A stretch of 64,000 bases of DNA from Acidobacteriota bacterium (GCA_035471925.1 DATIPO010000065.1:9340-73339), one strand, 5' to 3'; positions 3,351 through 62,251 are shown, counted from the first letter of the stretch. Notes: generated by a model not told the origin, from the sequence alone. Numbers and translations: made by a program.

Positions 3351-3381
3351 GGGGCTGGCTCGAATGGCTCGGCTTGCTACG

Positions 3382-4644: not shown

Positions 4645-4895
4645 GGTTGCGTCTCCTCCTTAACCGTGGTCGTCCTCCACCGTCGGCGAGAATGGATCCT
4701 TAATTCCGGGATTCCTGACAACAAACGTCGCCTCGCGCAGCTTCGTTCCCAAAAGATCTTCTGCCCCGGAGAGCGACGGGCAGCCGAGCCGGGGCCTTAA
4801 TGGCGCTCTCCGCTGAGCCTTGACCCGCGTCGGGATCTCGGTTTCGCTGCGGGCAGAGGCCGGAATTGGGTGGGTTGACTTCGGGCAGCGGGCAC

Positions 4896-4931
4896 AAAAA
4901 AAGACGCCTGATGCGGGCGGCACCAGGCGTC
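4896..4931 (-). terminator. Rho-independent terminator downstream of the Hsp20 gene
   Basis: On the minus strand a hairpin (gacgcctg...caggcgtc) is followed by TTTTTTT. Confidence 0.5.
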
Positions 4932-4996
4932 CTCGGGTTCGGACTCCGGCCGGGTCGCGTCTTCTCGCGACGCACCCGGGCCGAAGCAAGGCTCGG

Positions 4997-42188: not shown

Positions 42189-42728
42189 ATGAGACCGAGT
42201 CGGATCGTTGGCGCTTGTCTTTTTCTGCTTCTCTTCCATGGATGCCGACTGCTGCTCCATCCCCATGGCGGGCGTGGGTCAACCAAGTCAGATGTTGCCC
42301 TTGTCCAGATCCAAGAATTGGCTGGGGCCCTGGAGCTCTTCCACTTCGACACTGGACGCTATCCCACAAGCGAAGAAGGGCTGAAGGCATTGATCGACGG
42401 CCGAGGCACTGAAGGCTGGATGGGCCCATACCTGAACAAGGAGAGTTTGCCGGCCGATCCTTGGGGCAGCGACTACATCTATCGTCGTCCTGGTCGTTCA
42501 GGGGACTATGACTTGATGAGTCTGGGGGCCGACGGCCAAGCGGGCGGCGTCAGGGAAGGCGCCGATATCATTCTGGGCCAGCCATGGCCGCCCGATCCTC
42601 CCGTCTGGCGTCAGTTGTTGGGCTGGCGGTGGTGGATTCTCCACTCTGTCCTCCTTCTGCTCTATTTCCTGACAACAGCGACGGTCGCGGCTTGCACCCG
42701 TCCCCGGGTACATCCCCCTCCTGCATGA
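42189..42728 (+). CDS. GspG-like (type II secretion pseudopilin) domain protein lacking the canonical prepilin N-terminus
   Basis: SKSDVALVQIQELAGALELFHFDTGRYPTSEEGLKALI...GWMGPYL...PADPWGSDYIYRRPG...GDYDLMSLGADGQAGG matches GspG globular-domain conservation. The N-terminus MRPSRIVGACLFLLLFHGCRLLL has no G-F-T-L-I-E site. There is an extra hydrophobic C-terminal tail. Confidence 0.55.
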   Translation: MRPSRIVGACLFLLLFHGCRLLLHPHGGRGSTKSDVALVQIQELAGALELFHFDTGRYPTSEEGLKALIDGRGTEGWMGPYLNKESLPADPWGSDYIYRRPGRSGDYDLMSLGADGQAGGVREGADIILGQPWPPDPPVWRQLLGWRWWILHSVLLLLYFLTTATVAACTRPRVHPPPA

Positions 42729-42802
42729 TCGGGGACCGGACCAACCGGGTAGGGGCGCAACGTGTTCGCGGCGGCTCGACGGGCGGGGTGGTTTGGGGCA
42801 CA

Positions 42803-43909
42803 ATGCGCTACGGCGTTGTCATGCAAACCTCCACTCTAAAGGCCTATGTGCTGCCGGGACTCGTTTTTCAGTCCGTCGTCATCGCCGGGGGCTACGGCAC
42901 GGGACGCGAGCTGGCCGAGTTTTTTCTCTTTCATGGGCCCATGGAAGGGCTGATGGGCATGCTGCTGGTTTCGACGGTGCTGTGGTCGCTGGTCTGCGCC
43001 GCAACCTTTGAGTTCGCCCGCGCCTTCCAGGCCTACGACTACCGCCGCTTCTTCCAGCATCTGCTGGGGCGCGGCTGGATAGCCTTTGAAATCTGCTACC
43101 TGATTCTGCTGCTGCTGGTGCTGGCCGTGATCGCCTCGGCGGCGGGCAGCATTCTCCAGGAAACCTTTGGACTGCATTACTTGGCCGGAGTGGTGGGGAT
43201 CATGCTGGCCGTCGGATTCCTCGTCTTCAAGGGCAGTTCCGCCATCGAAGGCTTTCTCTCGGTGTGGTCGCTGGTGCTCTACCTGATGTACGCGGCCTTT
43301 CTGGCGGCCTGCTTTTGGTATTTCGGCGACCATATTCGAGAATCCTTTCAGACCCAGCCCCAAGGATGGGGATGGGTCGTCGGCGGGGTCAAATACGCGG
43401 CCTACAACCTGGGCGTGATTCCGGCCGTGCTCTTCGTTATTCGCCACCTCAAGACCCGACGCCAGGCGCTGGGAGCTGGAATGCTGGCCGGCCCCATCGC
43501 CATGATGCCGGGGCTCTTTTTCTACTTGGCCATGGCCTCGCAGTATCCCGAGGTGCTGGAGCGTCCGGTGCCCGCCAACGCCCTGCTGGAGTCGCTGGGA
43601 TCTCCGCTCTTCCAGATCGCTTTCCAGGTGGTCCTCTTCGGGACCCTGATCGAGACCGGCAGCGGCATGATCCACGCGGTCAATGAGCGTGTTTCAAACC
43701 TGCTCCAGGAGCGCCGAAAAGTCATGCCGTCCTGGCAGCGCTTCACCCTGGGAGTCGGGCTGCTTTTTCTGGGCGCGCTGATCGCCCAATACGGCCTTAT
43801 CGGACTCATCGCCCAAGGCTACGGGACCATCACTTGGGGCTTCCTGCTCATCTACGTCATACCCATCCTCACCTGGGGAATCATCAAGCTTCGCCGAGAG
43901 GCGTCCTGA
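42803..43909 (+). CDS. YkvI-like polytopic membrane protein (putative transporter)
   Basis: VVIAGGYGTGRELAEFF resembles the YkvI-family GAGFASGxE motif; ~10 TM segments. Confidence 0.7.
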   Translation: MRYGVVMQTSTLKAYVLPGLVFQSVVIAGGYGTGRELAEFFLFHGPMEGLMGMLLVSTVLWSLVCAATFEFARAFQAYDYRRFFQHLLGRGWIAFEICYLILLLLVLAVIASAAGSILQETFGLHYLAGVVGIMLAVGFLVFKGSSAIEGFLSVWSLVLYLMYAAFLAACFWYFGDHIRESFQTQPQGWGWVVGGVKYAAYNLGVIPAVLFVIRHLKTRRQALGAGMLAGPIAMMPGLFFYLAMASQYPEVLERPVPANALLESLGSPLFQIAFQVVLFGTLIETGSGMIHAVNERVSNLLQERRKVMPSWQRFTLGVGLLFLGALIAQYGLIGLIAQGYGTITWGFLLIYVIPILTWGIIKLRREAS

Positions 43910-43983: not shown

Positions 43984-45777
43984 TCAGATCCAGGTCTGAG
44001 TGGAGATTGCGGCCGGAAGCGTTGCGGCTGCCCAGGCTGCCAGAGTCGTCATCGCGGGTCGAAGACGGCGCTTGCGCAGAACCTGCCAGAGGGTGGCCGG
44101 CACACCCAGGACCAGCAGCGTCGCCGCTAAGCTCTCCCAGCCTGCAAAGTCCTCCAGGAACCAGGCTGAGGCCAGCAGCAGGAAGCTGGCGGCCAGCCCG
44201 TTCAACAGCGCCCTCCACCAGGCGATGCGCCGCACCGAACGGTAGAGCGCCGCTGCCAGCCCCCAGCAGACGCCCAGAACCAGGAGAGCACGCAGGATAT
44301 AGGGCATGAGAATCGTCTGGAGACTTAGATCACCTCCCTGCTCCTGCGAGGATCGGAGCTCTTGCATGGCGTCCGACATTCGCCGCAACGCCGTTGCCAT
44401 GGCGTCCGGCAGTCCCGCCTTCTTCTCCAACTCGTCGAGAGAAGAGTAAGGGGCTGTTCTTTGGATTCTGTCGGCAACTTCCAAGCTCATGCCCGGAACT
44501 CCCATCAGGTCGACGAGGGAGGCGGCATTGATGTCGAAGGTGTGGGTTCGGGGCAGGCCCCGATACTGATCGAAGAGGGTGGTCCCCGTCTTGAAGTCGG
44601 GGTTTGCCAGCCAGATTTGGGGGCTGCGCGTCAGGGATTGGCCCAGGAAAACCTCGTTCACCAGTCTGTCCAGCGCCTGGGCCTCCTGAGGGAAGCTTTT
44701 TTTATAGGCCGCAATCAGGGCCATGACGTCCTGGGGCTTGTCGGAATCGAAGACTGAAAAAAGCTTCAAGTAGGCATTCTCCAGGTCCGGCACTTCCTCG
44801 CTCAGCGTGCCGAACCGGGCAAAGAAATCCGGTCCTGAACGCGATTGCCGGATGGTCGAGTCGCTGACCCAACGATAAAACAATGCACTCACCACTCCCT
44901 CGGTGCTGACAAGAATCGAGGAGGGTTTGGCTGGACCTTCCGCTAAGCCGGGAAAGACGCCTTGTATCAGGTAGGCCTCGTAGGGATCTCCACCCCGAAG
45001 GAGCCGGTCCGGGATCCGTGGCTGGCGGGCAAAGGCGTTGGCTTTGACCCAATGGTAGCGCAGCAAATCTTCGGTCTGGCTGAACCAGAAGAGAAAGCGC
45101 ATGCGCGCCGGGGCTCCCGGTGAAAAGTAAGACTCCAAGGCCTGTCGATAGCGATGCAGGTTGTCCACCGCTCTCAGCCGGGACTCTTCGTCGTCGGCCA
45201 GGCGCGCAGTCTCAGGCGGGGCATCGGGAGCGTCCAGGGCCATGATCTGAAAGTGCTCGGCAAATCCTTCATTGAAGGCCACGATGGGGTCGGTGCGCAG
45301 CGCGGTGGCGTGAATCTGGTTGGCCCCTCCGTCGCCCAACTCGCCAATCAATTGGCGAATGAAGACGTGGCCTAGCTCATGGGGAAAGATCTGGTCGACT
45401 GCGCCGAATCGGCCTGTCAGGGGGCTTGACTTGTGGAGATCCACATAGGCCGCCTCGGGTTTCTCCTCACCCTCAAGGATGAAACCGTAGCGCGGAAATC
45501 CGCCCTGGTTCTCGGAAAGGTAGAGGTAGGCCGGCTCGACCTCGATGCCATCGCGCAGCGAGCGGAAGTTTTGAACAAGGCGGTAGAGCCGGACGATGCG
45601 GAGGGGGAAGCCGGAGGAGAGTGTTTGCCGGATGGCCTCGGCCTGTGGGTGATGAGTCAGCACCGGCAGCCCGTTGTGCTCTTCGTCCGTCCCGGTCAGG
45701 ATCACGAGTTGGGGCTGAGCCGCAAGATTGGAGCCGATCCCGACAAGCACGAGGCATGCTGCGAGAAGTGCCCTCAT
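43984..45777 (-). CDS. secreted HExxH zinc-metallopeptidase-like protein with a ComEA-type helix-hairpin-helix and C-terminal TM anchors
   Basis: Signal peptide; HELGHV; HhH motif INAASLVDLMGVPGMSLEVADRI; two C-terminal hydrophobic helices. Confidence 0.65.
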   Translation of the reverse strand: MRALLAACLVLVGIGSNLAAQPQLVILTGTDEEHNGLPVLTHHPQAEAIRQTLSSGFPLRIVRLYRLVQNFRSLRDGIEVEPAYLYLSENQGGFPRYGFILEGEEKPEAAYVDLHKSSPLTGRFGAVDQIFPHELGHVFIRQLIGELGDGGANQIHATALRTDPIVAFNEGFAEHFQIMALDAPDAPPETARLADDEESRLRAVDNLHRYRQALESYFSPGAPARMRFLFWFSQTEDLLRYHWVKANAFARQPRIPDRLLRGGDPYEAYLIQGVFPGLAEGPAKPSSILVSTEGVVSALFYRWVSDSTIRQSRSGPDFFARFGTLSEEVPDLENAYLKLFSVFDSDKPQDVMALIAAYKKSFPQEAQALDRLVNEVFLGQSLTRSPQIWLANPDFKTGTTLFDQYRGLPRTHTFDINAASLVDLMGVPGMSLEVADRIQRTAPYSSLDELEKKAGLPDAMATALRRMSDAMQELRSSQEQGGDLSLQTILMPYILRALLVLGVCWGLAAALYRSVRRIAWWRALLNGLAASFLLLASAWFLEDFAGWESLAATLLVLGVPATLWQVLRKRRLRPAMTTLAAWAAATLPAAISTQTWI

Positions 45778-46116: not shown

Positions 46117-48456
46117 TTACTGCTGATTCTGGTCCTCGGGGTTTTGGGTTTCCGGTTCATCGCCTTCCAGCGGAGTGACCGGCAGAGCGGTGAAGCTGCC
46201 CGGTTCGGCGCCGAACTCCAGCACCGTGGCCACGAAGGAACCGTCCTGGCTGCGGATCTCCAGCTCGCCCTGGAAGAACGGCGGCACGGCGTCGCCGAAG
46301 AGCTCGTCGAGCAGCAGGGCCGACCGCCCTTGGGCTGGCAGGCTCAAGGTAGTGAAGCCTCCCTCCAGCGGCTGTCCCAGCGGGTCGCGGAGGGTCAGCG
46401 AGAGGGTGATGGGATGATCCTCAGTGTTGCGAACAGCCGCTCCGGTGTTGGATCCGGCCTGGCGTCGGACGCTGGCCAGCGCCTCGCTCATCGGCTGGCT
46501 GCCCGGAACCACTGCCGTGCCCAGCCCCTCGATGGTGAAGCGCACGATGCCGGCCAGGCGTCCATCGGACTGCACCGTGGCCGATCCGCTGCGCAGTTGC
46601 GCGGCCTGCGGTCCCTCGAGCGCGAAGTCGCCCAGAGGAGCGATGGAGAAGTAAACCGCGCTCCAGTCTCCGGCGGCTTCCACCTGCTGTCCGTTGATGC
46701 GCGGCAGTGACTGCCAGGGCTGGCCCTGGGCGTCCAGCAGGCGGACGAATCCGCTCACCGTGCGGGTCTGGGAAGGATTGTGCAGGATCATCTGGGAGCG
46801 CAACCCCTGGCCCGAGCTGAACTGGGCGAAGTCGAGCCGGTGCTCGAGATCCAGCGCTTCCAGGCTTTGGGCGGGATTCACGACCGCCACGCTGCAGGTC
46901 TCGCTGGCCATGTTGCCGAAGGTGTCCTCGGCTGTCACCGTCCACTCGATAGTGTCGTGGACGCCTCCTGAGTCCTCGATCGTCAGCGTATCGCCCTCGA
47001 ATGAGACTACGCAGGAGTTGGTCTTGTCTACCAGTTTGCCTGAGGGATTGGTCCAGTAGCAGTCGAAGGAAGTGACTTCGGCCGCCACTGTGCCTTCACA
47101 GGCGTCCTCGGCGCTGGCGGTAAAGGAGATGGGCGCGTCCGGCGGCGTGATGGTGGCCGGCGCATTGCAAGAGATCACCGGCGGCAGCGTGTCCTGGACG
47201 ATCACCGTGCGGCTGACCTGCACCGCGTTGTTTCCGGCTGTATCGGCGGCGTCGTAGAGGATGATATAGGTGCCGGGAGTGGAGGTGTCGACGGTGTCTC
47301 CGCTGACCGTCACCGGGACGCTGCCGTCGCAGATGTCGGTGGCCGTGGCACCCGGATCCGTAAAGGTGTCGACGTTGCATTCCAGCGTGATCTCGGCATC
47401 GCCGTTAAGGGTGATCACCGGGGGAATCGTGTCCGCCACCGTGACCGTGCGGGTCCTCTGCACGGCGTTGTTGCCAGAGTCGTCGACAGCGTCATAGGTA
47501 ATGACGTAGACCCCCGGCGTGGAGGTGTCGACCGTGTCGCCTCCCACCGTCACTGGGACGTCGTTGTCGCAGTTGTCGGACGCCGAGAATCCAGGATCGA
47601 CGAAGGTGTCCACGCCGCATTCCAGCGTCAGGTCGCCGTCCACCAGCGAGATTACCGGCGCGGTTTCGTCCACCACCGTGACCGTGGCGGGGCACATGTC
47701 CTCGGCATTGCTGTCGTCGGTGACCGTCAACGTCACCGGCGTGTCGCCCAGCGAGAAGGGACCCGAGGGTGAAAGCGAAAGGGTGATGGGATCGCCGTCG
47801 GGGTCGAAGGACCCGTCATCAACCTGAGCGGCCGTGACGGTGGCCTGGCACTGCGCGTCGGCCACTTCCTGCACGTCCTGGCACATGGCCACCGGCGGAG
47901 TGTTGGGCTCCGTGAAGTAGACAATCAGTTCCACCGCATCGATATCCAGGGTGGGACCATTGACTTGCGTCAGACGGAATCCCAAGGTGCCGTTGGTCGC
48001 GGCCGTCCTCAGACTGGCCTCGGAGATGCCCCACAAGTTCCCGTCGCCGCCGGCACTGACGAAACTGGTGCTGGCGCAGTTGGATTGGCCTCCGAAGAAA
48101 AGAGGCAGAACCATGGCGGAGCCGCTCAGAGATCCTCCGATGGTGAGCTGGACCTGGTTGTCTCCGTTGGTGCGGTACTTAACCCGCACCTCCACGCCGG
48201 TGATCATTTCGCCGGCCGGGATCGTGAAGGCCGGGAAGGTCACCTCGATCCAGTTGTCCATCGGGACGTCAGAAGTAGCGGCGCAAAAATCGTCGGGTGC
48301 GCCCTCGATATTCCCGGTGGCGATCCACTCGTTGGGGTTGTCGACTGTATGTCCATTAGCGTTTCGGGTCTGGTCGGCAGCAAGTAGAAACAGTTGGAGA
48401 AGGCATAAGACGATCAGAGCCGTCATGAGCGCGAGTCTCCGGATTGATAGGAGCAT
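46117..48456 (-). CDS. large secreted Ig-like (DUF5011/HYR-like) repeat adhesin-like protein
   Basis: Signal peptide. Two ~80-aa repeats ETAPVISL.GD..ITLECGVDTF.DPG..A.D.CD..VPVTV.GDTVDTSTPG.Y.I.YDA.D..GNNAVQ..RTV.V.D. Confidence 0.7.
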   Translation of the reverse strand: MLLSIRRLALMTALIVLCLLQLFLLAADQTRNANGHTVDNPNEWIATGNIEGAPDDFCAATSDVPMDNWIEVTFPAFTIPAGEMITGVEVRVKYRTNGDNQVQLTIGGSLSGSAMVLPLFFGGQSNCASTSFVSAGGDGNLWGISEASLRTAATNGTLGFRLTQVNGPTLDIDAVELIVYFTEPNTPPVAMCQDVQEVADAQCQATVTAAQVDDGSFDPDGDPITLSLSPSGPFSLGDTPVTLTVTDDSNAEDMCPATVTVVDETAPVISLVDGDLTLECGVDTFVDPGFSASDNCDNDVPVTVGGDTVDTSTPGVYVITYDAVDDSGNNAVQRTRTVTVADTIPPVITLNGDAEITLECNVDTFTDPGATATDICDGSVPVTVSGDTVDTSTPGTYIILYDAADTAGNNAVQVSRTVIVQDTLPPVISCNAPATITPPDAPISFTASAEDACEGTVAAEVTSFDCYWTNPSGKLVDKTNSCVVSFEGDTLTIEDSGGVHDTIEWTVTAEDTFGNMASETCSVAVVNPAQSLEALDLEHRLDFAQFSSGQGLRSQMILHNPSQTRTVSGFVRLLDAQGQPWQSLPRINGQQVEAAGDWSAVYFSIAPLGDFALEGPQAAQLRSGSATVQSDGRLAGIVRFTIEGLGTAVVPGSQPMSEALASVRRQAGSNTGAAVRNTEDHPITLSLTLRDPLGQPLEGGFTTLSLPAQGRSALLLDELFGDAVPPFFQGELEIRSQDGSFVATVLEFGAEPGSFTALPVTPLEGDEPETQNPEDQNQQ

Positions 48457-48726: not shown

Positions 48727-50061
48727 ATGTTAGGACGCATCTGTTTGACTGGTTTGGCGTCGGTCGCTTTGATCGGCGTATCTCTCAGCGAGGATTGGCC
48801 TCACTGGCGTGGGCCGGAGGGTTCGGGAGTTTCCGACGAGACCGCTCTCCCGGCCTCTTGGAGCGCTACCGAGAATATCGCTTGGAAGGCCCCCCTCAAG
48901 GGCACCGGTGTTTCCTCGCCGGTCGTTTGGAGTGACACCGTTTTCGTCACCTCGCAGTCGGGGAGGGGAGCGGTCCGTTCCGGCAATCATCCCACCCTTT
49001 CGCGGGGAGAGGAGGCCATGGAGCGCGAACTCGGCGGTGCCGATGAGACCCGGAGCCCCGAGAAGGTGGTCTTTTTGGTGCAGGCTTTCGACACCGCCGA
49101 CGGCAGTCTGCGCTGGGAATTCATGCTGGACGCCGCCGCTCCGCTGCCGGAAGTCCACAACAAGAACAACCTGGCCACGCCCAGCCCGGTCACCGACGGC
49201 TCCATGGTCTATGCCTGGTTCGGCACCGGACAACTGGTAGCGCTCGACATGCAAGGCCGCCAACAGTGGGAACGCAACTTGGCCGACGACTACGCGCCCT
49301 TCCAGGTCAGTTGGGGACACGCCAGCTCGCCCACGCTCTACAAGGACACCCTTTTCCTGCTCTGCGACCACAGTTCGGAATCTTATCTGCTGGCCCTCGA
49401 CAAGCAGGACGGCAGCCAGAAATGGAAGGTGGAGCGCAACAGCGAGCGCGGATACAGCACGCCCATGGTGGTCTATCGCGAGCAGGGAGACGAGTTGATC
49501 GTCAACGGCAACCGAGGACTCAAGGCCTACGATCCTTCCAGCGGCGAGTTGCTGTGGAATCTGGAAGGAGAGAACCGTTTTCCGGTGCCTTCGCCCTCGC
49601 AAGGCGATGGGATGATCTTCACAAGCCGGGGCTACCGCAGCGGACCCTACATGGCCATTGAGCCCGGAGGGCGCGGAGACATCTCCGAGAGCCACGTCAA
49701 ATGGCGCAAGCCCACTGGCGCCCCCTACGTGTCATCGGTCGTCTACTATCGGGGAACCGTCTACTTCGTCAATGACAGCGGCATCGCCTCGGCCATTGAC
49801 GGCGCCACCGGCGAGACCCTTTGGAGGAGCCGGCTGGGCGGTGTCTTCAGCGCTTCACCAGTGGCTGGAGACGGCAAGGTCTACCTCACCAACGAGGGCG
49901 GCGAAACCATCGTGCTGCAGGCCTCACGTCCCCCGGAAGTCCTCTCGCGCAACGACTTGGGCGAACGCTGCCTGGCCTCTCCCGCTCTCGCTGGCGGACG
50001 CCTCTACCTGCGCACCGACCAACACCTCGTCGCCATCGGTCCTCCGCCCGCGGCCGAATGA
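48727..50061 (+). CDS. PQQ-like beta-propeller repeat protein (secreted)
   Basis: Signal peptide; DWPHWRGP hallmark; repeated W/G-containing blades. Confidence 0.8.
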   Translation: MLGRICLTGLASVALIGVSLSEDWPHWRGPEGSGVSDETALPASWSATENIAWKAPLKGTGVSSPVVWSDTVFVTSQSGRGAVRSGNHPTLSRGEEAMERELGGADETRSPEKVVFLVQAFDTADGSLRWEFMLDAAAPLPEVHNKNNLATPSPVTDGSMVYAWFGTGQLVALDMQGRQQWERNLADDYAPFQVSWGHASSPTLYKDTLFLLCDHSSESYLLALDKQDGSQKWKVERNSERGYSTPMVVYREQGDELIVNGNRGLKAYDPSSGELLWNLEGENRFPVPSPSQGDGMIFTSRGYRSGPYMAIEPGGRGDISESHVKWRKPTGAPYVSSVVYYRGTVYFVNDSGIASAIDGATGETLWRSRLGGVFSASPVAGDGKVYLTNEGGETIVLQASRPPEVLSRNDLGERCLASPALAGGRLYLRTDQHLVAIGPPPAAE

Positions 50062-50242
50062 GCAAGGGCATCGTCTGCGGTTCGGCTGTCAGGGATTGGC
50101 TGGAAGCACCTTGATCCGCTTCAAGGAGCCCCCCGCAGGAGGCGCCTCGTCCAGGCTGCGCGTCAAGATGGCGAAACCTCGGGTGCCCGCCCTGATTCCT
50201 CCACCGGCCATGAGGCCTTCGGAAGCCTGCTCGGCGCCCGTT

Positions 50243-51388
50243 TTATTGGTTTCTGAAGTATTGTTCGTTTTCCTTGATCCAAACGTGCCCGTGGGCCGCA
50301 TCTTTTCCGCAAGTTTCCAGCGCGGCTACCGAGGACCGCAGCAACTGATCGGCGCGGCGATGCTCTCCCAAGAGAAAGTAGGCGCGCCCGAAACCCAAGT
50401 CGATATCGGCTCGCTGGCAGGGGTCCGGGGAGTGGCCTGCCAGGGACTCCAGATGAGGCAAGGCGGCGGCCGCCAACCCCGACGCCAAGTAGAGCCGCGC
50501 CAAGGGGAGGTCAAAAACCGGCGTATTGGTCGCGCCGGAACATTCCAACAAGGTCACAATGGCTTCTCCCAAGATTCCATGGGTCTCCAGCAGGCGGGAG
50601 CGGGCTAGACAGGCGCCTTGGGGCTCCAATGGGGCTTGGGCGAGCAGTGCGAGTTCCCGCTTGACTTCGGCTGAGGCTTGCGGAGTCGTGAGCATGAAGC
50701 TGGACTGCGCCTCGGCTTCGGCTGGCTTCAGGTCGGCTCCCAATCGTGTGACTGTGAAGTCCACCAATTGACCCGGACGGAGAGGTGCGCCGAAAGCGGG
50801 ATAGTCCATCTTGCAGAGGGACCGGCTCGCCGTCAGTCGACGGCACAGGCCGGCGGCCTTGACGACCTTCGTGCCCATGCTGGAACCGGCCTCCGACAAA
50901 GTCCAATGAAAGTATTGGGCGCTTGCGGGGACGGTCCATGCCAGGGGCGGGCGGTCGTCCGGCGTGCTGCCGCGCGGCGAGAGGACCCAAAGTGAAGATT
51001 GGCCCTTGGGGGCCCGCGTCTTCAGCGTCGCTTCGCCCGATGCGGTCACCGATATCGGAGAGGCTGAGTCCATCAGTCTCTCGAACAGGCTGGTTGGTAG
51101 CGATTCGCCAACGCATTCCTGCTCGTTGGCCGTCCAATCCCGCGGTCCCTGCAGGTTGACCAGGCGGTTGTTGTCGCACAGAATCCTGGCCTTGCTGCCC
51201 TGGGCGAGTGAGAGTCGGACGCCGGGTGGAAGCAGGCTCAGCAGTTGAAGCGCACAACTCGGTCCGGTCGGGTTGAAGCGGGCTTCGACCTTTCCTTCGC
51301 TGTGAAGCGGCAAAACGGCGATGCCGTCCTTGCTGTCGCCCGATACTCCGAGGACGAAGAGTCCAGTAGCCAGTATGTGCAAGAACAT
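50243..51388 (-). CDS. secreted hypothetical protein, co-operonic with the CHAT protease
   Basis: Signal peptide MFLHILATGLFVLGVSG. Starts 15 nt after the CHAT gene stop. Several Cys residues. Confidence 0.6.
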   Translation of the reverse strand: MFLHILATGLFVLGVSGDSKDGIAVLPLHSEGKVEARFNPTGPSCALQLLSLLPPGVRLSLAQGSKARILCDNNRLVNLQGPRDWTANEQECVGESLPTSLFERLMDSASPISVTASGEATLKTRAPKGQSSLWVLSPRGSTPDDRPPLAWTVPASAQYFHWTLSEAGSSMGTKVVKAAGLCRRLTASRSLCKMDYPAFGAPLRPGQLVDFTVTRLGADLKPAEAEAQSSFMLTTPQASAEVKRELALLAQAPLEPQGACLARSRLLETHGILGEAIVTLLECSGATNTPVFDLPLARLYLASGLAAAALPHLESLAGHSPDPCQRADIDLGFGRAYFLLGEHRRADQLLRSSVAALETCGKDAAHGHVWIKENEQYFRNQ

Positions 51389-51403
51389 TCTTCCGTCCTC
51401 TTC

Positions 51404-53737
51404 TTAGGTTTCTGAAGAGCCGGCGGCACAGTTGATGGTTTCTTCCAGTTTTTTGCCTTCGTAGAACCAAACGGACTCAGCTCCGCCATCGGTCTGCCTC
51501 AGGAGCTTGAGACGAAGGCAGGCCTCATCCCTCTCTCCCAACTCATGGTGCAGCAGCGCCTTCAGGTAAGTTATTTCTAAGAGCAGAAAAAAGCGGTCGC
51601 CGATGGTGCTTTCAATTCCTTTGAGGTCGGCCAGGGCGGACTCCAGCTCTCCTAGCTTCAGTTTTGCTCGGGCCAGGTTCTTTCGCATCCTCGGATCGCC
51701 GGGCTTTGCGGCCAGTCCGTTGACAAGAACCCGGCGGGCCTTCTTCCAATCACCGCGGTCCAGGTAGATGCGTCCCAACTCATTCCAGGCATCGGGAAAG
51801 GCGTAATCCTCGGCCGCGACTCGCAACTGCACGATGGCGTCCTCGATTTGATCTTGCTGAGGGTGGGCCAAGAGGATTCCGTAATTGAAGCGCAGGTGTC
51901 CGTCGCCGGGATCAATCTGAACCGCCTCCCGAGCATGTTCAACGGCGGAGGCGATCCTCCCGAGACCGCTTTCAGCCAATGCCAGATAGGAGTGGGCGGG
52001 CGCGAAACGCTCATCACTGTCAATGGCGTTTTGAAAGCAGCGGCGAGCCGCCGAGTAGTCGCGCTTCTGAAGGTGCTTGACTCCTTGCAGCGTCCATTCC
52101 CCCACGTCGGAGGCCACGGCTGTGCGGATCGACTCTTTCAGGACGGGACTGAGGCTCACCCCAGCCTTCTCCAGCAGCCATTCCGCGATCCGCGATTCCA
52201 ATGGAAAGGGGTCGGCTGGAAGGGTCTCGTCTTTGGGGCTGCTGCGGGTCGAATCCAGCAGTTGTTTCAGACCGACGAGTTCCTGGGTTCTGCATTTGCC
52301 ATCGACAACACCGAAATGGGAGGAGCTCACGTCGCCGTTGGAGGCCAGTTGCCTAAGCTGTACGAAACTCGATCCGCCCTCCTCCCAGGAGCCCCGGCCA
52401 TCGGGCCTACAGCCGGAATGGACAATCCTGAGCGGGGGACCAGCTTGGCGGGGCCAGTTGCGGGCCGCGGCCTGCAGCTTGGCCACCACTACTTCGTGTT
52501 GGGGACCGGCAAGCCCCTGCGAATCGTCGAAGGCCTCAACAAAGACCCGCAATTCTCCTTTCTGCGGTCCACTGCCGATCGTCAGCCAGCCCAGGACCAC
52601 GAGAATGACGAGGGCAGCCGCAGCATTGATTATCCGTCTCTTGTTCCACCAAACCGTTTGGCTGAAGAGTCGTTGCCCGCTGCGGGCCGCGTAGAGCACC
52701 GGCGTACCCCAAGCGGGACGGTTGGAGCCTGAGTACAAATCCCGCCAGCATTCTGCCAAGGCTTCGTCCACTGTGTGGCCCTGGCTCAGGGCGGCATAGA
52801 AGCGGACCGCGAAGCTGACGGCCAGGTCAGAACGGATGTCGAACTGCATGGCCACTACGTTGGGAATGCCCCGCCGCTCCAGCTCGGCGGCCATGGCCGG
52901 AAGGGAGGTCTCGAATTCAGCGCGGGCACCTTCGCAAGAGTTGAGAACCACCAGACGCAGGTCGGGCTGATCTTTCAGGAGGGTGGCAAAACGCCGGCTC
53001 AAGACCACGTCCCTGCCGCTGCTGTGCTCGTCCGCCTTGAAGAAGAGGCTGTCGGGACCTCCGTGGCGGATCAGGTGGAGGATATGGTAGGACTCGCCTT
53101 TAAGCTGCTGCTGGAGGGTGGTCATGCTGTCGGCATCGATCCTCAGAAGCTTGAGACGCCCGGCGCGGACTTCTGGTGCGAGCAGCTCTTGAAGTTGGTT
53201 CCACTCATTGTCGCCTCCCAGGTCCTCTTCACCGACTGGCACAACCACCGCCATGCGCACCGGTCCTTCGGGTGTGGGAGTCAGTTCCCCGGCCCTGCTG
53301 CCCAGCCGGCGCACCAGAGTGGCGGCTCCTCCGGGCAGCATGAATTCGCGTTCTTGGGGATCGAACAGATACTCCCAGGGCAATTCCGCCAATTTGGGTG
53401 CCTGGGTGAAGTCCAGCGTCAATCGCAGCTTCCGTCCTCGTCCTAGTGCCGCGCGGCAGCAGCGCAAGGCTGTCAGCATTTCGCCCTGGAAGAGGATCTC
53501 GAAAAGAATCTCGCCCACCTGTTCCATGGCCTTCATGCCATCGGCCGGAGATTCCGAGAGCCTGCCTTCTGCCCGTTGACGAATCAGGGCCAGTTCGTCA
53601 TCGTCGAAAGGCACCTTGAAGTCGACGACCGTGCCCACATTGCTGCTGGCTCGCACTAATTGGGCGCCATAGTGCGCTTCGCCAATGCGGCGAAACCACA
53701 CCTCGAAGGCCTCGAGACGAACTCCTGCTGACATCAC
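51404..53737 (-). CDS. CHAT-domain (caspase-like) peptidase: N-terminal cytoplasmic CHAT, single TM, periplasmic TPR region
   Basis: CHAT hallmarks PWEYLFD, His-Gly dyad YHILHLIRHGG and catalytic Cys VVLNSCEGA. TM helix IINAAAALVILVVLGWLTIG. C-terminal TPR repeats. Confidence 0.8.
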   Translation of the reverse strand: MMSAGVRLEAFEVWFRRIGEAHYGAQLVRASSNVGTVVDFKVPFDDDELALIRQRAEGRLSESPADGMKAMEQVGEILFEILFQGEMLTALRCCRAALGRGRKLRLTLDFTQAPKLAELPWEYLFDPQEREFMLPGGAATLVRRLGSRAGELTPTPEGPVRMAVVVPVGEEDLGGDNEWNQLQELLAPEVRAGRLKLLRIDADSMTTLQQQLKGESYHILHLIRHGGPDSLFFKADEHSSGRDVVLSRRFATLLKDQPDLRLVVLNSCEGARAEFETSLPAMAAELERRGIPNVVAMQFDIRSDLAVSFAVRFYAALSQGHTVDEALAECWRDLYSGSNRPAWGTPVLYAARSGQRLFSQTVWWNKRRIINAAAALVILVVLGWLTIGSGPQKGELRVFVEAFDDSQGLAGPQHEVVVAKLQAAARNWPRQAGPPLRIVHSGCRPDGRGSWEEGGSSFVQLRQLASNGDVSSSHFGVVDGKCRTQELVGLKQLLDSTRSSPKDETLPADPFPLESRIAEWLLEKAGVSLSPVLKESIRTAVASDVGEWTLQGVKHLQKRDYSAARRCFQNAIDSDERFAPAHSYLALAESGLGRIASAVEHAREAVQIDPGDGHLRFNYGILLAHPQQDQIEDAIVQLRVAAEDYAFPDAWNELGRIYLDRGDWKKARRVLVNGLAAKPGDPRMRKNLARAKLKLGELESALADLKGIESTIGDRFFLLLEITYLKALLHHELGERDEACLRLKLLRQTDGGAESVWFYEGKKLEETINCAAGSSET

Positions 53738-53882
53738 GGTCTCCCTGAGCAGAGCTGAAAGGCAAGTTCCCTCCCTTAGACACGCTCATTGAATGATTGT
53801 GTGATAGGAAACTGAAAATTCTCCGTAATCGTCCCCAGTAGTGCTGTGAGTCCGGCCCCGGCCTATGATGCGATTTGACCGC

Positions 53883-53964
53883 GTTTACTGGAGGTGTAAA
53901 CAGCGGACCAGGTAAACAGTTTCTGCTCCTGGGCATTGACATTTGGGGCGGAAGGGCCGTTTAC
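53883..53964 (+). promoter_or_regulatory. Operator/promoter region: GTTTAC-N7-GTAAAC inverted repeat, AAAC-N-GTTT, and a TTGACA-18-TTTACT promoter with a third GTTTAC half-site
   Basis: Perfect 6-bp inverted repeat at 53883..53901, a palindrome at ~53913..53921, and gtttac again in the -10 region. Lies between the divergent CHAT operon and the XRE-HTH ORF. Confidence 0.4.
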
Positions 53965-53986
53965 TTTGGTAGATCTTTTTACGACC

Positions 53987-54406
53987 ATGAGAATCCGGCT
54001 TCGGCATGATCGGCTGGCAGATGCAATCGCCAAGAGCCGGGCCAGCCAGAACGCCTGGGCGCGGCGGCTGGGACTCGGCAGAGGGCATCTGTCGCTGCTC
54101 GTTCGAGGCAAGCGTCCCTACCCGTCGAAGGTCACGCGGATCAAGCTGCTGAGCGGACTGGACCTGCCGTTTGGAGAGTTGTTCAAGGTTGAGCGCTCGG
54201 CTGGCGCTCGAAACACAAATTTCGGGGAGGATCCGCTCCCGGAAGCCAGGACCCACTCGTCGCTGAGGGCCGCCCCAGTGGACTCTCAGGGCAGGCGTCG
54301 GTCGAGGCGGGCTGCCAAGAGGCGGCGTTCGGCGACGGTCCCAGCCGGCAGCCTACATTCAAGAACGCTGTGGCCCGCCGGAAAAGGGGCCACGAGAAAG
54401 GAGGGT
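53987..54406 (+). CDS. XRE-family (Cro/C1-type) HTH domain ORF, in frame with no stop before the downstream permease
   Basis: MRIRLRHDRLADAIAKSRASQNAWARRLGLGRGHLSLLVRGKRPYPSKVTRIKLLSGLDLPFGELF is an HTH_XRE domain. It is followed by an Arg-rich low-complexity linker that reads through into the permease. Confidence 0.45.
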
Positions 54407-56830
54407 ATGTTGAGCAGTTTGAGAGGAGATCTGCGCTCTGCCTTTCGCCTGATGGCAGCCCACAAGGGCCTGATGGCGGTCATGGTCGTGGTGTTGGCCT
54501 TGGGCATCGGGCCCAATCTGGCCGTTTTCGCGGTCATGGACGCGGTCTTGCTCAAAAGCCTTCCTTATTCCCAACCCGACGCCTTGGCCGCCGTAGGACC
54601 TCCGCTGCTGGAGCTTTCGCCCGTCGAGCTGCTCGACTTGCGGCAACGAAGCCGGCTGGCCCGCTCCATAGCGGGATGGCAGCCGGTCGATTGGAGCCTC
54701 ACTCATCCTGGGGAACCAGCGGTCGTCCGGGGAGCGCGCGTAACCCCAAACCTCTTTGCCACATTGAAAGTCGAGACGGTCCTGGGTTCGGGCTTTGACG
54801 CCGAAGGGCCGGCGAGCGCAATGATTTCCGACCGCCTGTGGAGAAGCCGCTTTTCCGGCTTGGCCGATGTCCTGGGGCGCAGGCTGACAATCGAAGGACA
54901 ATCCTACCCGATCAGCGGCGTCATGCCTCCCGGATTCGCCTTGCCCGACGACATCGAAAGCGGTCAAAGGTCGGACGTTTGGCTGCCCATCGACATGCGC
55001 GCCGTGAGTCCGCGCAGCCGCGGCTTTAAAGACCTGCTGGTGGTGGCCCGTTTGAAAGAAGGCGTCTCCATGGCCTCCTTTCAGGCCGAAATCACAGCCA
55101 TCGCCCAGGACCTGCAGCGCGAGTTTCCTGATTGGTATCCGTCCGACAAGGCCTTCCAGATCCCGATCCTGCGGCTGCATGAGAAAACCCTGGGCCGGAC
55201 GCGTCCCGCCCTGCGCCTGCTCCTTGGCGGCGTGGGGCTGGTGTTGCTGATCGCCTGCGTCAATGCGGCCAACCTGTTGTTGATCCAGGCCCGGCGCAGT
55301 TACTCCGGATTGGCGCTGCGGCGGATCCTGGGTGCCAGCCGGGTGCGCCTGATGCGTCCGCTGGTCCTGCAAAGCCTGGCGGTGGCGCTGCTGGCAGGAG
55401 TCCTGGGCATGGCGATGGCCGAGGGGATGCTGGGCCTGATGCGGTTACTGGCTCCTGAAGGGGTTCCCCGCTTCGAAGCCATCCAAGTCAGCACGCGGGT
55501 CTTCGCTTTTGGCTTCCTCCTCTCGATGGCTGTAGGGCTGGTATTCGGCGTTTTGCCTGCTCTCAGGGTCTCAGGCTGGTTCAAGGGCGCGATGCCCCTG
55601 GCGGGACGGGGAACGCGGGGCATCCTGGGCGGCTTGCGGCTGCACCGCCAGGCCATTCTGGCCGAAAGCGCGCTGGCCATGATTCTGCTGGTGGGCGGCG
55701 GACTCATGGCCAAGAGCTTCTGGCTGCTGACCCGCGTCGAGGCGGGATTCGAATCGCGAGACACGCTGACCTTCGAGATCGCTTTGCCCAAGTCGCGCTA
55801 TCCCGAATCCCACCGGGTTTCGTCCTTTTTCAATGCTCTGGTGCAGCGGCTGGAAGGGCTTCCGGGCGTGATCTCGGGAGCGGCGGTGCGCAAGCTGCCG
55901 CTGCAGCACTCGGTGGGACGCTGGGAGAGCAGCGTCGCCGGCTCTCCCAAGGGCGACGAGAAGATACTGCCCCAATACCAAGTCATTACGCCGGGGTATT
56001 TCAAGACCCTGGGAATCCGTCTGGCTGAGGGACGCGACTTCAGGCCCACCGACGATGCCGAGGCTTCTGCTGTACTGATCGTCAACCGCTCGCTGGCAGC
56101 GGAGGCATGGCCGGGAGTCAGCGCCCTGGGTAAGCAGCTCAAGATGAGCGGCTCCAGCGAGTCTCCCTGGCTGCGTGTCGTGGGAGTGGTTGAGGACGTC
56201 CGCCATGCAGGCTTAGACGTCCCCGCCGGCCCGCGCATGTACCTGCCCCACAGTCAGTACCCCTCGTCATCGGTGATTGGAGGTCCGGTACGCCGCATGA
56301 CAGTGGTGCTGCGGGTCAAGGGGGCAGCGGACGACCTGGCCGGGCCGGTCAAGCAAGAGGTTCGGCGGCTGGATCCCGGCCTGCCCCTGCAGAGCGTCCG
56401 CAGCATGGACGAGGTCGTGAGCCGGTCGATTTCGCGTCCTCGCTTCCTTACCTCGCTGCTGGCCGCCTTCGGAACGACCGGACTGTTGCTGGCAGCTCTG
56501 GGGGTGTACAGCGTGGTCCTGCTCTCGACAACGCTGCGGCGTCACGAATTCGGAGTGAGGATGGCCGTGGGTGCCCGTCCCTGGGACGTCCTCAGGCTGA
56601 ACGCCGGGCAGGGGCTGCTTCTGACCCTGGCCGGGGCGGGCATCGGACTGCTCGGGGCATTGGCCTTGACCCGCCTTCTCTCAGGATTCCTCTTCGGCGT
56701 CTCTCCCCTCGACTGGAGCGTGATGACCGCCTGCTTCGCGCTGCTGACCGCCATCGGACTGGCCGCATCGGCCATTCCCGCCCTCCACTCAGCCCGCATC
56801 GACCCGATCTCTGTCCTGCGAAGCGAATAG
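54407..56830 (+). CDS. ABC-transporter permease, MacB-like duplicated FtsX (ADOP family)
   Basis: Internal ATG with RBS gagaaaggaggg. MLSSLRGDLRSAFRLMAAHKGLMAVMVVVLALGIGPNLAVFAV... is the typical permease N-terminus; two FtsX modules. Confidence 0.85.
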   Translation: MLSSLRGDLRSAFRLMAAHKGLMAVMVVVLALGIGPNLAVFAVMDAVLLKSLPYSQPDALAAVGPPLLELSPVELLDLRQRSRLARSIAGWQPVDWSLTHPGEPAVVRGARVTPNLFATLKVETVLGSGFDAEGPASAMISDRLWRSRFSGLADVLGRRLTIEGQSYPISGVMPPGFALPDDIESGQRSDVWLPIDMRAVSPRSRGFKDLLVVARLKEGVSMASFQAEITAIAQDLQREFPDWYPSDKAFQIPILRLHEKTLGRTRPALRLLLGGVGLVLLIACVNAANLLLIQARRSYSGLALRRILGASRVRLMRPLVLQSLAVALLAGVLGMAMAEGMLGLMRLLAPEGVPRFEAIQVSTRVFAFGFLLSMAVGLVFGVLPALRVSGWFKGAMPLAGRGTRGILGGLRLHRQAILAESALAMILLVGGGLMAKSFWLLTRVEAGFESRDTLTFEIALPKSRYPESHRVSSFFNALVQRLEGLPGVISGAAVRKLPLQHSVGRWESSVAGSPKGDEKILPQYQVITPGYFKTLGIRLAEGRDFRPTDDAEASAVLIVNRSLAAEAWPGVSALGKQLKMSGSSESPWLRVVGVVEDVRHAGLDVPAGPRMYLPHSQYPSSSVIGGPVRRMTVVLRVKGAADDLAGPVKQEVRRLDPGLPLQSVRSMDEVVSRSISRPRFLTSLLAAFGTTGLLLAALGVYSVVLLSTTLRRHEFGVRMAVGARPWDVLRLNAGQGLLLTLAGAGIGLLGALALTRLLSGFLFGVSPLDWSVMTACFALLTAIGLAASAIPALHSARIDPISVLRSE

Positions 56831-56851: not shown

Positions 56852-57589
56852 CTAGCTGGCCTGCAGCTCCCCTTCCAGGCGCTGGCGCAGGCTCTCCATG
56901 TCGAGGAGCATCTTGCGTCCCTGATAGTCGAGCATTCCCAGCTTCTTGAATTCTGAGAGGATGGTCGAGATGTGAGGTCGGCAGCCGCCGATCATTTCCG
57001 CCAGACGCCGGTGGCTGATTGGAATGCTGAGTTTGAGAAGCCCCTTGTCGGCGTAAGTCGGCTGGCCGTGCAGGTCGCCCAGCTTGAGGAGGGTCTTGGC
57101 CACCCTCTGGCGAGCTTCCAGAGATCCGTCCTGCAGGTCGCTGCGGGCCTCCCACAGCCGCTGGGTCAGGATGCGGATGAGGTTGAGCGAAAGAGCCGGC
57201 CTGAGCTGCATCAGTTCCAGCAGCTTGTGGCGCGGCAGAAGCGAGGCCCAGCATTCCTGGTAGGCGGTGGCGGTGGCTTGGTAAGCCGTGGTGCGACCCA
57301 GTATTTCCTCCCCGAAGACCTCGCCCCCTTTGAGAATGCGCAGGACTTTGGGACGCGGCTTGCGTCCCACCGAAAGCTGGACGTATCCGCGGTTGAGGAT
57401 GTACAGGTGCTGGACCGGATCGCCTTCTCGGAAGATGTGGCTGCCTTCGGGGTAGATTCGATCGCTACAGGCTCTGCCCACGGTTTCGATCTCCTCGGTG
57501 GAAATCTCCCACACCAAAGTGGATCGCTTGAGGTGCCACATTCGGTCGGCACTCCTCAGCGGGCGTTCTTGAGTTGCGGCTTCAGCCAT
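56852..57589 (-). CDS. Crp/Fnr-family transcriptional regulator (cNMP-binding domain plus HTH)
   Basis: IFREGDPVQHLYILNRGYVQL...GEEIL is a cNMP fold; C-terminal HTH RRLAEMIGGCRPHISTILSEFKKLGML. Start at the internal ATG. Confidence 0.8.
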   Translation of the reverse strand: MAEAATQERPLRSADRMWHLKRSTLVWEISTEEIETVGRACSDRIYPEGSHIFREGDPVQHLYILNRGYVQLSVGRKPRPKVLRILKGGEVFGEEILGRTTAYQATATAYQECWASLLPRHKLLELMQLRPALSLNLIRILTQRLWEARSDLQDGSLEARQRVAKTLLKLGDLHGQPTYADKGLLKLSIPISHRRLAEMIGGCRPHISTILSEFKKLGMLDYQGRKMLLDMESLRQRLEGELQAS

Positions 57590-58268
57590 GGTTTCTCTCC
57601 TTCCCGGAACGGGCAGCCAATGATGCCAGGACTCCACCAGCCGGGACGGCCGGCGCCGGACCCAGCCGGCGCTCCTTGAGTTCGGAGCGGATGAAAACTC
57701 GGGCCCGATGTACCCGGCTCTTGATCGTAGATTTCGGAAGTCCGAGGGCTTGGCAGACTTCGGACTCCGAGAGCTTCTCCAGATCTTTGAGGACGTAAGG
57801 GAGCCGGTAGGTTTCGGGCAATTCGGCGATCAGCTTGCGCACCTGATCGGCCAGCTCGCGACGCAGCAAGGCCGTTTCCGGCATCCGGCTCCAGTCGCGG
57901 ACGGCGGAGGGGTGCCGGGCGCAGGCATCGGGCAGCCTGGAGTCGACATCCACCAGCGGAGTCCTGCGCTTCTTCCTCAGCCTCGATAGGGCCAGATTGG
58001 TGGCGATGCGGTAGAGCCAGGTCGAAAGCGAAGCCTGGCCCCGGAAGCTTGAGATCGACTGGAAGGCCTTAAGGAACGTCTCCTGAACACAGTCCTCGGC
58101 ATCTTGAGCATTGCGCAGGATGCGCATGGCTACGCCCTGAAGTCGATGGCCATGACAGCTCACCAACTCGTCAAAGGCCTGGGATGAACGGCGCTTCAGC
58201 CGCTCGACCAGGATCTGCTCGCGGTCATCGGGGTGGAATTTTCGACTCTCGTCGTCTCGTTTCTCCAT
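57582..58268 (-). CDS. ECF-type RNA polymerase sigma-70 factor
   Basis: Region 2 (FDELVSCHGHRLQGVAMRIL...VQETFLKAFQSISSF) and region 4 (LPETYRLPYVLKDLEKLSESEVCQALGLPKSTIKSRVHRAR). Confidence 0.85.
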   Translation of the reverse strand: MEKRDDESRKFHPDDREQILVERLKRRSSQAFDELVSCHGHRLQGVAMRILRNAQDAEDCVQETFLKAFQSISSFRGQASLSTWLYRIATNLALSRLRKKRRTPLVDVDSRLPDACARHPSAVRDWSRMPETALLRRELADQVRKLIAELPETYRLPYVLKDLEKLSESEVCQALGLPKSTIKSRVHRARVFIRSELKERRLGPAPAVPAGGVLASLAARSGKERNHG

Positions 58269-61636: not shown

Positions 61637-62251
61637 ATGAAACTGTATAGCAAGTACCGAAACCAAACCCTCCTCCTCTTTGTCCTGATCTTGGGCTTCT
61701 CGGTGGCGGGCCTTTTGACCGCGGCGGCGGGACCCGCCTTTCAGGAAAAGCTGGTCTTCAACGGCGACAACGAACTGCAGCGCCCCGATTTCAGCTTTCG
61801 CAACTGGCGTTACATCGGAACGCCGGTGACGCCCAACGACCTGAATTCTGGAAAGGCCCCGTTTCCGGAATTCCACAACGTTTACATCCATCCTGATGAC
61901 TACGACTACTACGCCCGCACCGGCAAGTTCCGCGACGGGACAGCCCTCATCAAGGAGCTGGTGAGCGTCAGCTCCAAGCAGGCGCCCAGCGGCAACGGCT
62001 ACTTCATGGGCGATTTCATCGGCCTCGAGGTGGCGGTCAAGGACTCCAGGCGTTTTCCCGATGAGCCCGGATACTGGGCCTACTTCAGTTACGGCCACAG
62101 TTATCCCCTGAAGGAGAAGGCGGCCGCCCAACCCACGGATACCTGCAATGCCTGCCACCAGGCCAATGCGGCCGACGATTGGGTGTTCAGCCAATACTAT
62201 CCGGTCCTGCGGGCCGCCAAGACCGTCCCGATGGGCGGCGGAAGCCAGTAA
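61637..62251 (+). CDS. cytochrome P460 / cytochrome c'-beta family protein (periplasmic)
   Basis: Signal peptide, RBS aaggag, C-terminal heme-binding CNACH and FRNWRYIG...YYARTGKFRDGTALIKE conservation. Paralogous to the next gene. Confidence 0.7.
   Translation: MKLYSKYRNQTLLLFVLILGFSVAGLLTAAAGPAFQEKLVFNGDNELQRPDFSFRNWRYIGTPVTPNDLNSGKAPFPEFHNVYIHPDDYDYYARTGKFRDGTALIKELVSVSSKQAPSGNGYFMGDFIGLEVAVKDSRRFPDEPGYWAYFSYGHSYPLKEKAAAQPTDTCNACHQANAADDWVFSQYYPVLRAAKTVPMGGGSQ

Follow-up and report, generated by a model that had tools for sequence, protein, structure and literature searches.

An N-terminal CHAT protease module with one transmembrane helix and a predicted periplasmic TPR ectodomain, and the putative exported partner encoded beside it, in an Acidobacteriota genome

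Can a bacterial caspase-like protease be controlled from the far side of the inner membrane? The question is raised by two adjacent minus-strand genes in a 64,000-nucleotide stretch of DNA (GCA_035471925.1, DATIPO010000065.1:9340-73339; hereafter the window), which an exact-sequence look-up at NCBI traced to a 76-kb contig of an Acidobacteriota metagenome-assembled genome with third-party annotation. The first gene (51404..53737) encodes a protein with an N-terminal CHAT protease module, a predicted transmembrane (TM) helix and a C-terminal half containing tetratricopeptide repeats (TPRs), and the second (50243..51388) encodes a 381-residue protein that is probably exported. CHAT takes its name from HetF ('Caspase HetF Associated with TPRs'). 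A reading of the sequence alone had proposed that the pair forms a transmembrane signalling or regulated-proteolysis module. On balance, we favour a HetF-like single-pass inner-membrane receptor-protease in a two-gene unit with an exported partner. The identity and topology of the CHAT–TM–TPR protein can be assigned with good confidence, while the involvement of the partner and the receptor-protease mechanism, taken together, are tentative.

Both open reading frames (ORFs) lie on the minus strand where the sequence-only reading had placed them. The CHAT–TM–TPR ORF comprises 777 amino acids (aa) from a GTG at 53737, from which residues are numbered throughout, and is an exact match to HSR50208.1, 'CHAT domain-containing protein [Acidobacteriota bacterium]', which NCBI starts at the ATG one codon 3' (53734; 776 aa). 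An AGGGAG ribosome-binding site (53741..53746) is located 6 nt 5' of this ATG. The downstream ORF corresponds to HSR50207.1, a 'hypothetical protein'. Their length, the highly significant domain matches and the annotation of both as genes by NCBI show that these ORFs are not chance features.

The N-terminal CHAT protease module (residues 1–360; 52658..53737), predicted to be cytoplasmic, consists of a small β/helical sub-domain (residues ~1–97) and a caspase-fold core. Pfam CHAT (PF12770) matched residues 75–364 with 68.7 bits against a cut-off of 24 bits (E = 7.2e-19), covering profile positions 4–281 of 289. The motifs PWEYLFD, YHILHLIRHGG and VVLNSCEGA were located at residues 120, 217 and 263, respectively, placing the catalytic His225 (HLIRHGG; codon 53063..53065) and Cys268 (VVLNSCEGA; codon 52934..52936) at positions confirmed by checking the codons. 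Both residues are invariant in an alignment of the query with 17 homologues (18 sequences, A2), in which His218 and the Glu of the PWE motif are likewise invariant, and in a 64-sequence family alignment (A4); His and Cys occupy the dyad columns in 146 of 150 family representatives. An AlphaFold2 model built on the 18-sequence alignment was confident over residues 1–360 (predicted local distance difference test, pLDDT, ~75–93), which adopt the caspase/separase-type α/β fold, and continued into one long helix (residues 361–388). In structure comparison the best matches were CHAT-clade proteins, the closest solved CHAT domain being the SAVED-CHAT of a type III-B cascade, whereas ordinary metacaspases and caspases scored only 8–9.5; Foldseek gave a concordant result. 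These findings bear out the earlier description of a complete N-terminal CHAT domain with a His/Cys dyad. They show that the catalytic module is intact and suggest that it is probably active, and that the protein is most likely an inner-membrane cysteine endopeptidase of the CHAT family (clan CD, separase/HetF-type).

A single TM helix separates this module from the C-terminal half. With a 19-residue Kyte-Doolittle window and a threshold of ≥1.6, residues 369–388 (IINAAAALVILVVLGWLTIG; 52574..52633), which follow the sequence NKRR, are the only qualifying segment in the whole protein; the segment reaches a peak score of 2.5 and lies inside the uninterrupted 28-residue model helix. The protein has no N-terminal signal peptide, and the 368 residues that precede the helix should for this reason remain in the cytoplasm. 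The family as a whole exhibits a positive-inside bias, the N flank of the helix being more basic than the C flank in 84 and less basic in 17 of 125 single-TM members (Wilcoxon p = 1.6e-12), and relatives carry C-terminal domains of classic periplasmic types, namely TolB, TonB-C, GldJ/K-type FGE-sulfatase and PD40. Together with the analogy to HetF described below, these features make an N-in/C-out topology the clear favourite and, in agreement with the sequence-only reading, the best reading of the protein.

The predicted periplasmic ectodomain (residues 389–777; 51407..52573) comprises a juxtamembrane region (residues 389–544), a TPR array and a short Cys-containing tail. The array consists of about 4–5 repeats at residues ~545–711 (51605..52105) that were matched by Pfam TPR_1, TPR_2, TPR_14, TPR_16 and TPR_19, by an NCBIfam PilW-like stretch (residues 551–711) and by consensus-TPR entries of the PDB (residues 548–696), so that the TPR-containing C-terminal half had been correctly recognised. 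Beyond residue ~390, no family representative other than P0001 matched the protein in the phmmer search of cluster representatives described below. BLAST against 74 + 150 family members found no specific relatives of the ectodomain, and a metagenome scan yielded generic TPR matches only; the juxtamembrane region had no relatives in the family searches, by BLAST or in the metagenome scan. Both ectodomain and partner have the appearance of lineage-specific additions to a common protease module.

The order of these domains had been regarded as reversed relative to other CHAT proteins. It is not unusual, because HetF of Anabaena sp. PCC 7120 (alr3546) likewise has an N-terminal CHAT domain, one TM helix and periplasmic TPRs (PMC8406250 Fig. 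4A legend; PMC9457339), that is, the same domain order and the same predicted topology as the window protein. HetF localises to the membrane in a TM-dependent manner, is recruited to the septum via FtsI and cleaves PatU3 in a Cys295-dependent manner, and these papers describe no co-encoded secreted partner of HetF (PMC8406250, PMC9457339). By sequence comparison, the window protein is not a HetF orthologue. Its match to the HetF NCBIfam model NF045509 ('cell division protein HetF') reached 38.3 bits against a cut-off of 1200 bits and aligned residues 201–355 with model positions 217–380 of 836, and its CHAT region is ~360 aa long compared with ~555 aa in HetF. Furthermore, the roles of HetF in heterocyst differentiation and, through recruitment by FtsI, at the divisome are specific to cyanobacteria, whereas the window derives from an Acidobacteriota genome.

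The extent of this architecture was apparent from an exhaustive phmmer search with residues 1–545 against 1.84 billion cluster representatives (clusters at 50% identity), which returned 14,251 matches at E ≤ 1e-3, 8,331 at E ≤ 1e-10 and 2,090 at E ≤ 1e-30. Among the best 150 matches the CHAT module was N-terminal in 147; it was followed by one hydrophobic segment and then ~100–650 residues in 92, by several such segments in 17 and by none in 41. A scan of one genome per species recovered at least 586 loci from Chloroflexota, Acidobacteriota, Verrucomicrobiota, Actinomycetota, Gemmatimonadota, KSB1, Dadabacteria and others, and in the 74 loci in which the gene could be delimited, one TM segment was present in 41 and several in 7. 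CHAT–TM–ectodomain is the dominant layout of a very large subfamily. For all 64 members scanned, HetF was the nearest named NCBIfam (best E = 2e-33), far below the 1200-bit equivalog cut-off.

The ectodomains of this subfamily are interchangeable binding modules. In the 63 other single-TM members, FGE-sulfatase/C-lectin domains (GldJ/K, PvdO and EgtB models) were found in 6 and TPRs in 4; PD40/TolB propellers, WD40, TonB C-terminal and lectin-like domains also occur, and most members carry no assignable domain. The window protein shares 31–40% identity with the subfamily over the whole 360-aa CHAT module, including the N-terminal sub-domain, and has the same dyad. It differs in the position of its TM helix ~21 residues after the CHAT module, the shortest linker seen (26–460 residues in the others), in its TPR ectodomain, which is rare elsewhere, in a juxtamembrane region without relatives and in a downstream partner gene that is unique to its own lineage. 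It is a lineage-specific member of the membrane-anchored CHAT proteases of HetF architecture, already annotated as a CHAT-domain protein. The subfamily (family loci L003–L082 and proteins P0029–P0177) holds further variants. A few giant members of 1,500–2,300 aa (P0029, P0030, P0033 and P0087) have the TM segment at their extreme C-terminus, and some have a degenerate dyad (H/Y, Y/C or P/V); P0006 and P0013 have a STAND-like NTPase and TPRs inserted between the CHAT module and the TM segment.

Other characterised CHAT proteins are built differently. Csx29 of Craspase (type III-E CRISPR), which is activated by the RNA-bound Cas7-11 complex, and separase, which is activated by the removal of securin, are cytoplasmic and soluble and carry a TPR/helical region N-terminal to CHAT, whereas the window protein has the opposite order and a TM helix; the neighbours scanned included no CRISPR-associated genes, in an analysis that involved no dedicated search for CRISPR arrays. 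SAVED-CHAT (PDB 8tl0; PADLOC PDLC02016) is a soluble, filament-forming protein with an N-terminal SAVED sensor of cyclic oligoadenylates. No SAVED domain was found in the Pfam scan of the window protein, and its match to the PADLOC SAVED_CHAT model (35.5 bits; residues 206–364 to model positions 136–263 of 498) corresponds to the CHAT core only. DdvA, a transmembrane anti-sigma factor of Myxococcus xanthus (PDB 8rot), has a zinc-binding anti-sigma domain in the cytoplasm, followed by a TM helix and, in the periplasm, a TPR-CHAT region whose CHAT domain lacks a three-helix motif (PMC11506125). Its topology and domain order are the opposite of those of the window protein, in which CHAT itself is at the N-terminus and the TPRs are C-terminal to the TM helix. 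DdvA is also paired with an adjacent extracytoplasmic function (ECF) sigma factor (PMC11506125), whereas the nearest ECF sigma gene in the window (57582..58268) is 4 kb away, beyond a divergent permease gene and in another operon. The general design has a counterpart in C14 metacaspases fused via TM helices to extracellular receptor domains, noted in 2012 and exemplified by the metacaspase-CHASE2 protein of Trichodesmium and by metacaspase-FGE-sulfatase proteins (PMC3501461). These fusions share with the window protein an intracellular caspase-fold protease, a TM segment and an extracellular sensor domain, but they belong to another protease family (C14, not CHAT/C50-like) and are likewise uncharacterised experimentally.

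The partner gene begins after a 15-nt intergenic spacer (51389..51403) that contains a GAGGA ribosome-binding site (51396–51400) 7 nt 5' of its ATG, and no terminator-like site was found anywhere in 49900–54500. These features favour, and are compatible with, transcription as one operon. A Sec-type signal peptide is predicted at the N-terminus of the partner (MFLHILATGLFVLGVSG; 51338..51388), where a hydrophobic core of 10–13 residues falls short of the length needed to be scored as a TM helix. The searches for homologues (single-sequence search, profile search, one genome scan and one metagenome scan) recovered only the near-identical P0027 and P0180 (about 99%, other samples) and one protein of 53% identity, P0028; the genome and metagenome scans contributed none. 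P0028 retains the hydrophobic core, the best 10-residue window scoring 2.3–2.4 at residues 5–14 in both proteins, aligns collinearly with the partner over the full length and conserves eight of its nine cysteines (positions 71, 92, 182, 192, 260, 283, 324 and 360). The collinear alignment, the conserved cysteines and the hydrophobic N-terminus argue for a real, exported, disulfide-bonded protein, and we infer that the partner is an exported, Cys-rich, lineage-specific orphan. It matched no Pfam, NCBIfam or PADLOC family and so does not belong to DUF4384 or another CHAT-associated family, as had been considered. Sub-threshold Pfam matches to TPR_19, TPR_4 and TPR_14 at residues ~291–352, together with a single, non-significant match in a PDB profile search that was also TPR-like (E = 0.79), suggest that the C-terminal third is TPR-like and helical. 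The claim of a secreted, Cys-containing partner 15 nt downstream therefore stands with respect to the spacing, the length of 381 aa, the exported-type N-terminus and the cysteines, whereas co-transcription of the pair can only be inferred.

P0028 is encoded on a 6793-bp contig (L001; Logan SRR31012004), where its start overlaps (ATGA) the stop of an upstream co-directional gene, to which it is translationally coupled. At this locus it heads a co-directional cluster (134–5097) of three more exported proteins, namely an M48 metallopeptidase with a TPR, a Peptidase_C14 caspase, which has a long N-terminal region as well as a signal peptide, and a TPR protein of 200 aa; the cluster looks like a possible periplasmic proteolysis module around an exported caspase. 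Apart from a generic TPR match, the window holds no counterparts of the M48, C14 and TPR genes. The contig ends within the upstream gene, of which a 44-aa C-terminal fragment is left. Compared with the CHAT–TM–TPR protein, this fragment gave a Smith-Waterman score that was reached by 145 of 500 shuffles (whole protein) and 398 of 1000 shuffles (last 60 residues), and a likeness to the C-terminus of the CHAT–TM–TPR protein seen by eye ('V..YEG...I.C') was dropped because of these non-significant results.

How might the two proteins act together? The CHAT module would face the cytoplasm, the TM helix would anchor it and the TPR ectodomain would face the periplasm, where it would bind a protein that localises or controls the enzyme. 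The best candidate ligand is the co-encoded, disulfide-rich partner, which is the most economical choice because it is predicted to be exported, because its C-terminal third is TPR-like and because its independent homologue lies among exported proteases and TPR proteins. Contact with the ligand would position or switch the protease, probably by a change in oligomeric state or by clustering across the single helix. Since caspase-fold enzymes are typically switched by oligomerization, ligand-driven clustering would be the most plausible route of transmission. The cytoplasmic CHAT domain would then cleave one or a few specific cytoplasmic or membrane-proximal substrates, by analogy with the cleavage of PatU3 by HetF.

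Several observations weigh against this account. The AlphaFold2 model had low confidence in the C-terminal half of the CHAT–TM–TPR protein, where the alignment has no depth, and that of the partner, built from two sequences only, had a mean pLDDT of 40.7 and was unusable. The protein's own charge bias across the helix is marginal, with 3–4 Lys/Arg residues on the N flank versus 2 on the C flank. A hetF mutant is complemented by the soluble CHAT domain of HetF on its own (PMC9457339), which implies that catalysis does not strictly require the TM and TPR parts of that protein, weakens the case for a transmembrane switch and favours a role in localisation; by analogy, these parts of the window protein may serve localisation rather than activation. 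The pair was seen in one lineage, and at the independent L001 locus the truncated gene upstream shows no detectable similarity. Finally, only 5 of 53 downstream same-strand ORFs in the 74 related loci have a hydrophobic N-terminus and none of the 53 is a homologue of the partner; a secreted downstream gene is not a family trait.

Among the other explanations, it is somewhat unlikely that the CHAT–TM–TPR protein works alone and that the downstream ORF is an unrelated exported neighbour, or merely shares its transcript, without forming a functional pair. The scarcity of exported products and the lack of partner homologues downstream of related genes would be expected on such a view, as would the position of P0028 beside exported proteases and not demonstrably beside a CHAT–TM–TPR gene, and no significant sequence relationship was detected between the partner and the ectodomain that might indicate paralogy. 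However, the short spacer, the partner's own ribosome-binding site and the lack of a terminator favour one operon, the homologue in L001 is also translationally coupled to an upstream co-directional gene, and in both independent loci the partner family adjoins a caspase-fold protease and TPR proteins. A failure of the hydrophobic segment to act as a genuine N-in/C-out anchor, with the protein being soluble, peripheral or inverted, deserves very little credence. The marginal charge bias and the 41 of 150 representatives that lack a hydrophobic segment by the same criterion speak for it; they are opposed by the height of the hydropathy peak over 19 residues and the unbroken model helix, by the lack of a signal peptide able to export 368 residues of folded CHAT, by the strong positive-inside bias and periplasmic-type C-terminal domains of the family and by the TM-dependent membrane localisation of HetF.

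Two further explanations concern the biological role. In an anti-phage or conflict effector, the ectodomain would sense an invader molecule at the envelope and the CHAT domain would trigger abortive infection or cell death, as in CRISPR type III-E/III-B, gasdermin and STAND systems. CHAT domains are recurrent defence effectors, the closest solved CHAT domain and the weak PADLOC match are both of SAVED-CHAT type, and the swappable ectodomains resemble a receptor repertoire, some relatives carrying FGE-sulfatase/C-lectin domains of the type that is diversified by diversity-generating retroelements (DGRs) in putative antigen sensors (PMC10907252). We nevertheless consider this role improbable here, as the PADLOC match covers only the generic catalytic core, no SAVED domain is present and the partner has no PADLOC match. 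Moreover, Pfam and NCBIfam scans identified ordinary chromosomal genes within ~15 kb on each side, encoding ADOP permeases, a BamB/PQQ-like propeller, an Ig-like-repeat surface protein, a cytochrome bd oxidase, an SPFH protein, a Crp/Fnr regulator, an ECF sigma factor, a two-component system (a PAS/GAF histidine kinase and a LuxR-type response regulator) and cytochrome P460 proteins. Across the locus the base composition is even, with no GC anomaly, and no gasdermin, CRISPR, STAND NTPase or DGR elements were found among the genes examined within the 64-kb window. A defence island was rejected since PADLOC and the neighbourhood scan were both negative, there is likewise no sign of a mobile island, and nothing nearby supports the tight regulation, as in defence or death modules, that the sequence-only reading had envisaged. 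A functional equivalent of HetF, that is, a divisome-associated protease recruited by a periplasmic or membrane division protein to degrade a division inhibitor, would agree with the shared domain order and predicted topology and with HetF being the nearest named NCBIfam. It is highly improbable in view of the low-scoring match to the HetF model, which is restricted to the catalytic core, the much shorter CHAT region, the lack of division, cell-wall or patU-type genes among the neighbours scanned and the finding that none of the 80 best genomic loci of the subfamily is cyanobacterial.

Upstream of the CHAT gene, the sequence-only reading had described a promoter region shared with an XRE-type helix-turn-helix (HTH) ORF and bearing palindromic operators, neither of which is supported. 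The locus is covered by three consecutive NCBI proteins, the third of which, HSR50209.1 ('ABC transporter permease'), is an ADOP-family duplicated permease (TIGR03434, 721 bits). The ADOP family is typical of Acidobacteria and expanded in them. The supposed regulator ORF (53987..54406, plus strand, 140 codons) reads in frame and without a stop codon into the permease ORF, which it extends at the 5' end; a separate AAGGAGG ribosome-binding site precedes the permease ATG at 54407, where the NCBI protein begins, and no gene is annotated between HSR50208 and HSR50209. The stretch matched no Pfam family even at E ≤ 10 and no HTH family in NCBIfam, and its single PDB match, suggestive but non-significant, aligned residues 18–70 with the HTH of a phage immunity repressor (8bny, E = 0.22). 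On these grounds an XRE-HTH regulator was rejected. One possibility is an XRE-type regulator gene, decayed or very divergent, whose stop has been lost; another is an ORF that arose by chance in GC-rich DNA. Should no gene be present here, ~670 nt between two divergent genes are unannotated. The only palindromes are two short and imperfect ones (11–12 nt, 82–83% complementary), both inside this extension and not in the 53738–53986 spacer. No sigma-70 promoter was found on the minus strand, although promoters of Acidobacteria may not fit that consensus.

Elsewhere in the window, which contains no further CHAT paralogues, two ADOP/MacB-type duplicated permease genes (MacB_PCD and FtsX, twice each) lie within 22 kb of each other (32226–34952, minus strand; 54407–56830, plus strand), consistent with the known expansion of this family in Acidobacteria. 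The gene at 46117–48456 (minus strand), for a secreted protein of 779 aa that combines tandem Bact_surface_Ig-like domains with an acidic tail, lies next to the convergent BamB/PQQ-like propeller gene (48727–50061), which directly adjoins the partner gene at the 3' end of the latter; a near-identical contig (L002) also carries this convergent propeller gene. The longest ORF of the Crp/Fnr-type regulator (cNMP-binding and HTH_Crp_2; 56852–57637, minus strand) overlaps the 3' end of the ECF sigma gene (57582–58268, minus strand) by 56 nt, and there is no obvious anti-sigma gene 3' of the latter. Three ORFs of 418, 441 and 597 aa (40696–41952, minus strand; 42584–43909, plus strand; 43984–45777, minus strand) have a coding-like third-position GC content (GC3) of 0.74–0.77 and no Pfam match at E ≤ 1e-5. 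Tandem cytochrome P460 genes are located at 61637–62251 and 62292–63446 (plus strand), the second of which is fused to a C-terminal cupredoxin/plastocyanin-like domain.

The individual locus carries little weight, as it encodes an already annotated CHAT protein with the layout of HetF. Of greater use is the accompanying finding that the HetF architecture, far from being a cyanobacterial curiosity, predominates in a family of over 2,000 sequence clusters (50% identity) in at least eight phyla. To our knowledge, HetF is the only member with a known substrate, signal or phenotype. A bolder proposal, which we regard as unlikely but worth stating, is that the subfamily may represent widespread single-chain transmembrane receptor-proteases, a bacterial counterpart of death-receptor-to-caspase signalling, in which a periplasmic ligand would bind the swappable ectodomain (TPR, C-lectin/FGE-sulfatase, TolB/PD40 propeller or TonB-C), the cytoplasmic CHAT domains would oligomerize and cytoplasmic targets would be cleaved. 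On this proposal, the ligand at the window locus would be the co-encoded disulfide-rich protein or something captured by it, and the envelope signal would be conveyed by proteolysis and not by phosphorylation. If the members are indeed transmembrane receptor-proteases, they would amount to a substantial, as yet unexplored means of envelope-to-cytoplasm signalling, for which the window locus offers a concrete hypothesis in the form of a candidate periplasmic ligand encoded beside its receptor. The wider family, being large, receptor-like and spread over many phyla, is a more interesting target than this single locus.

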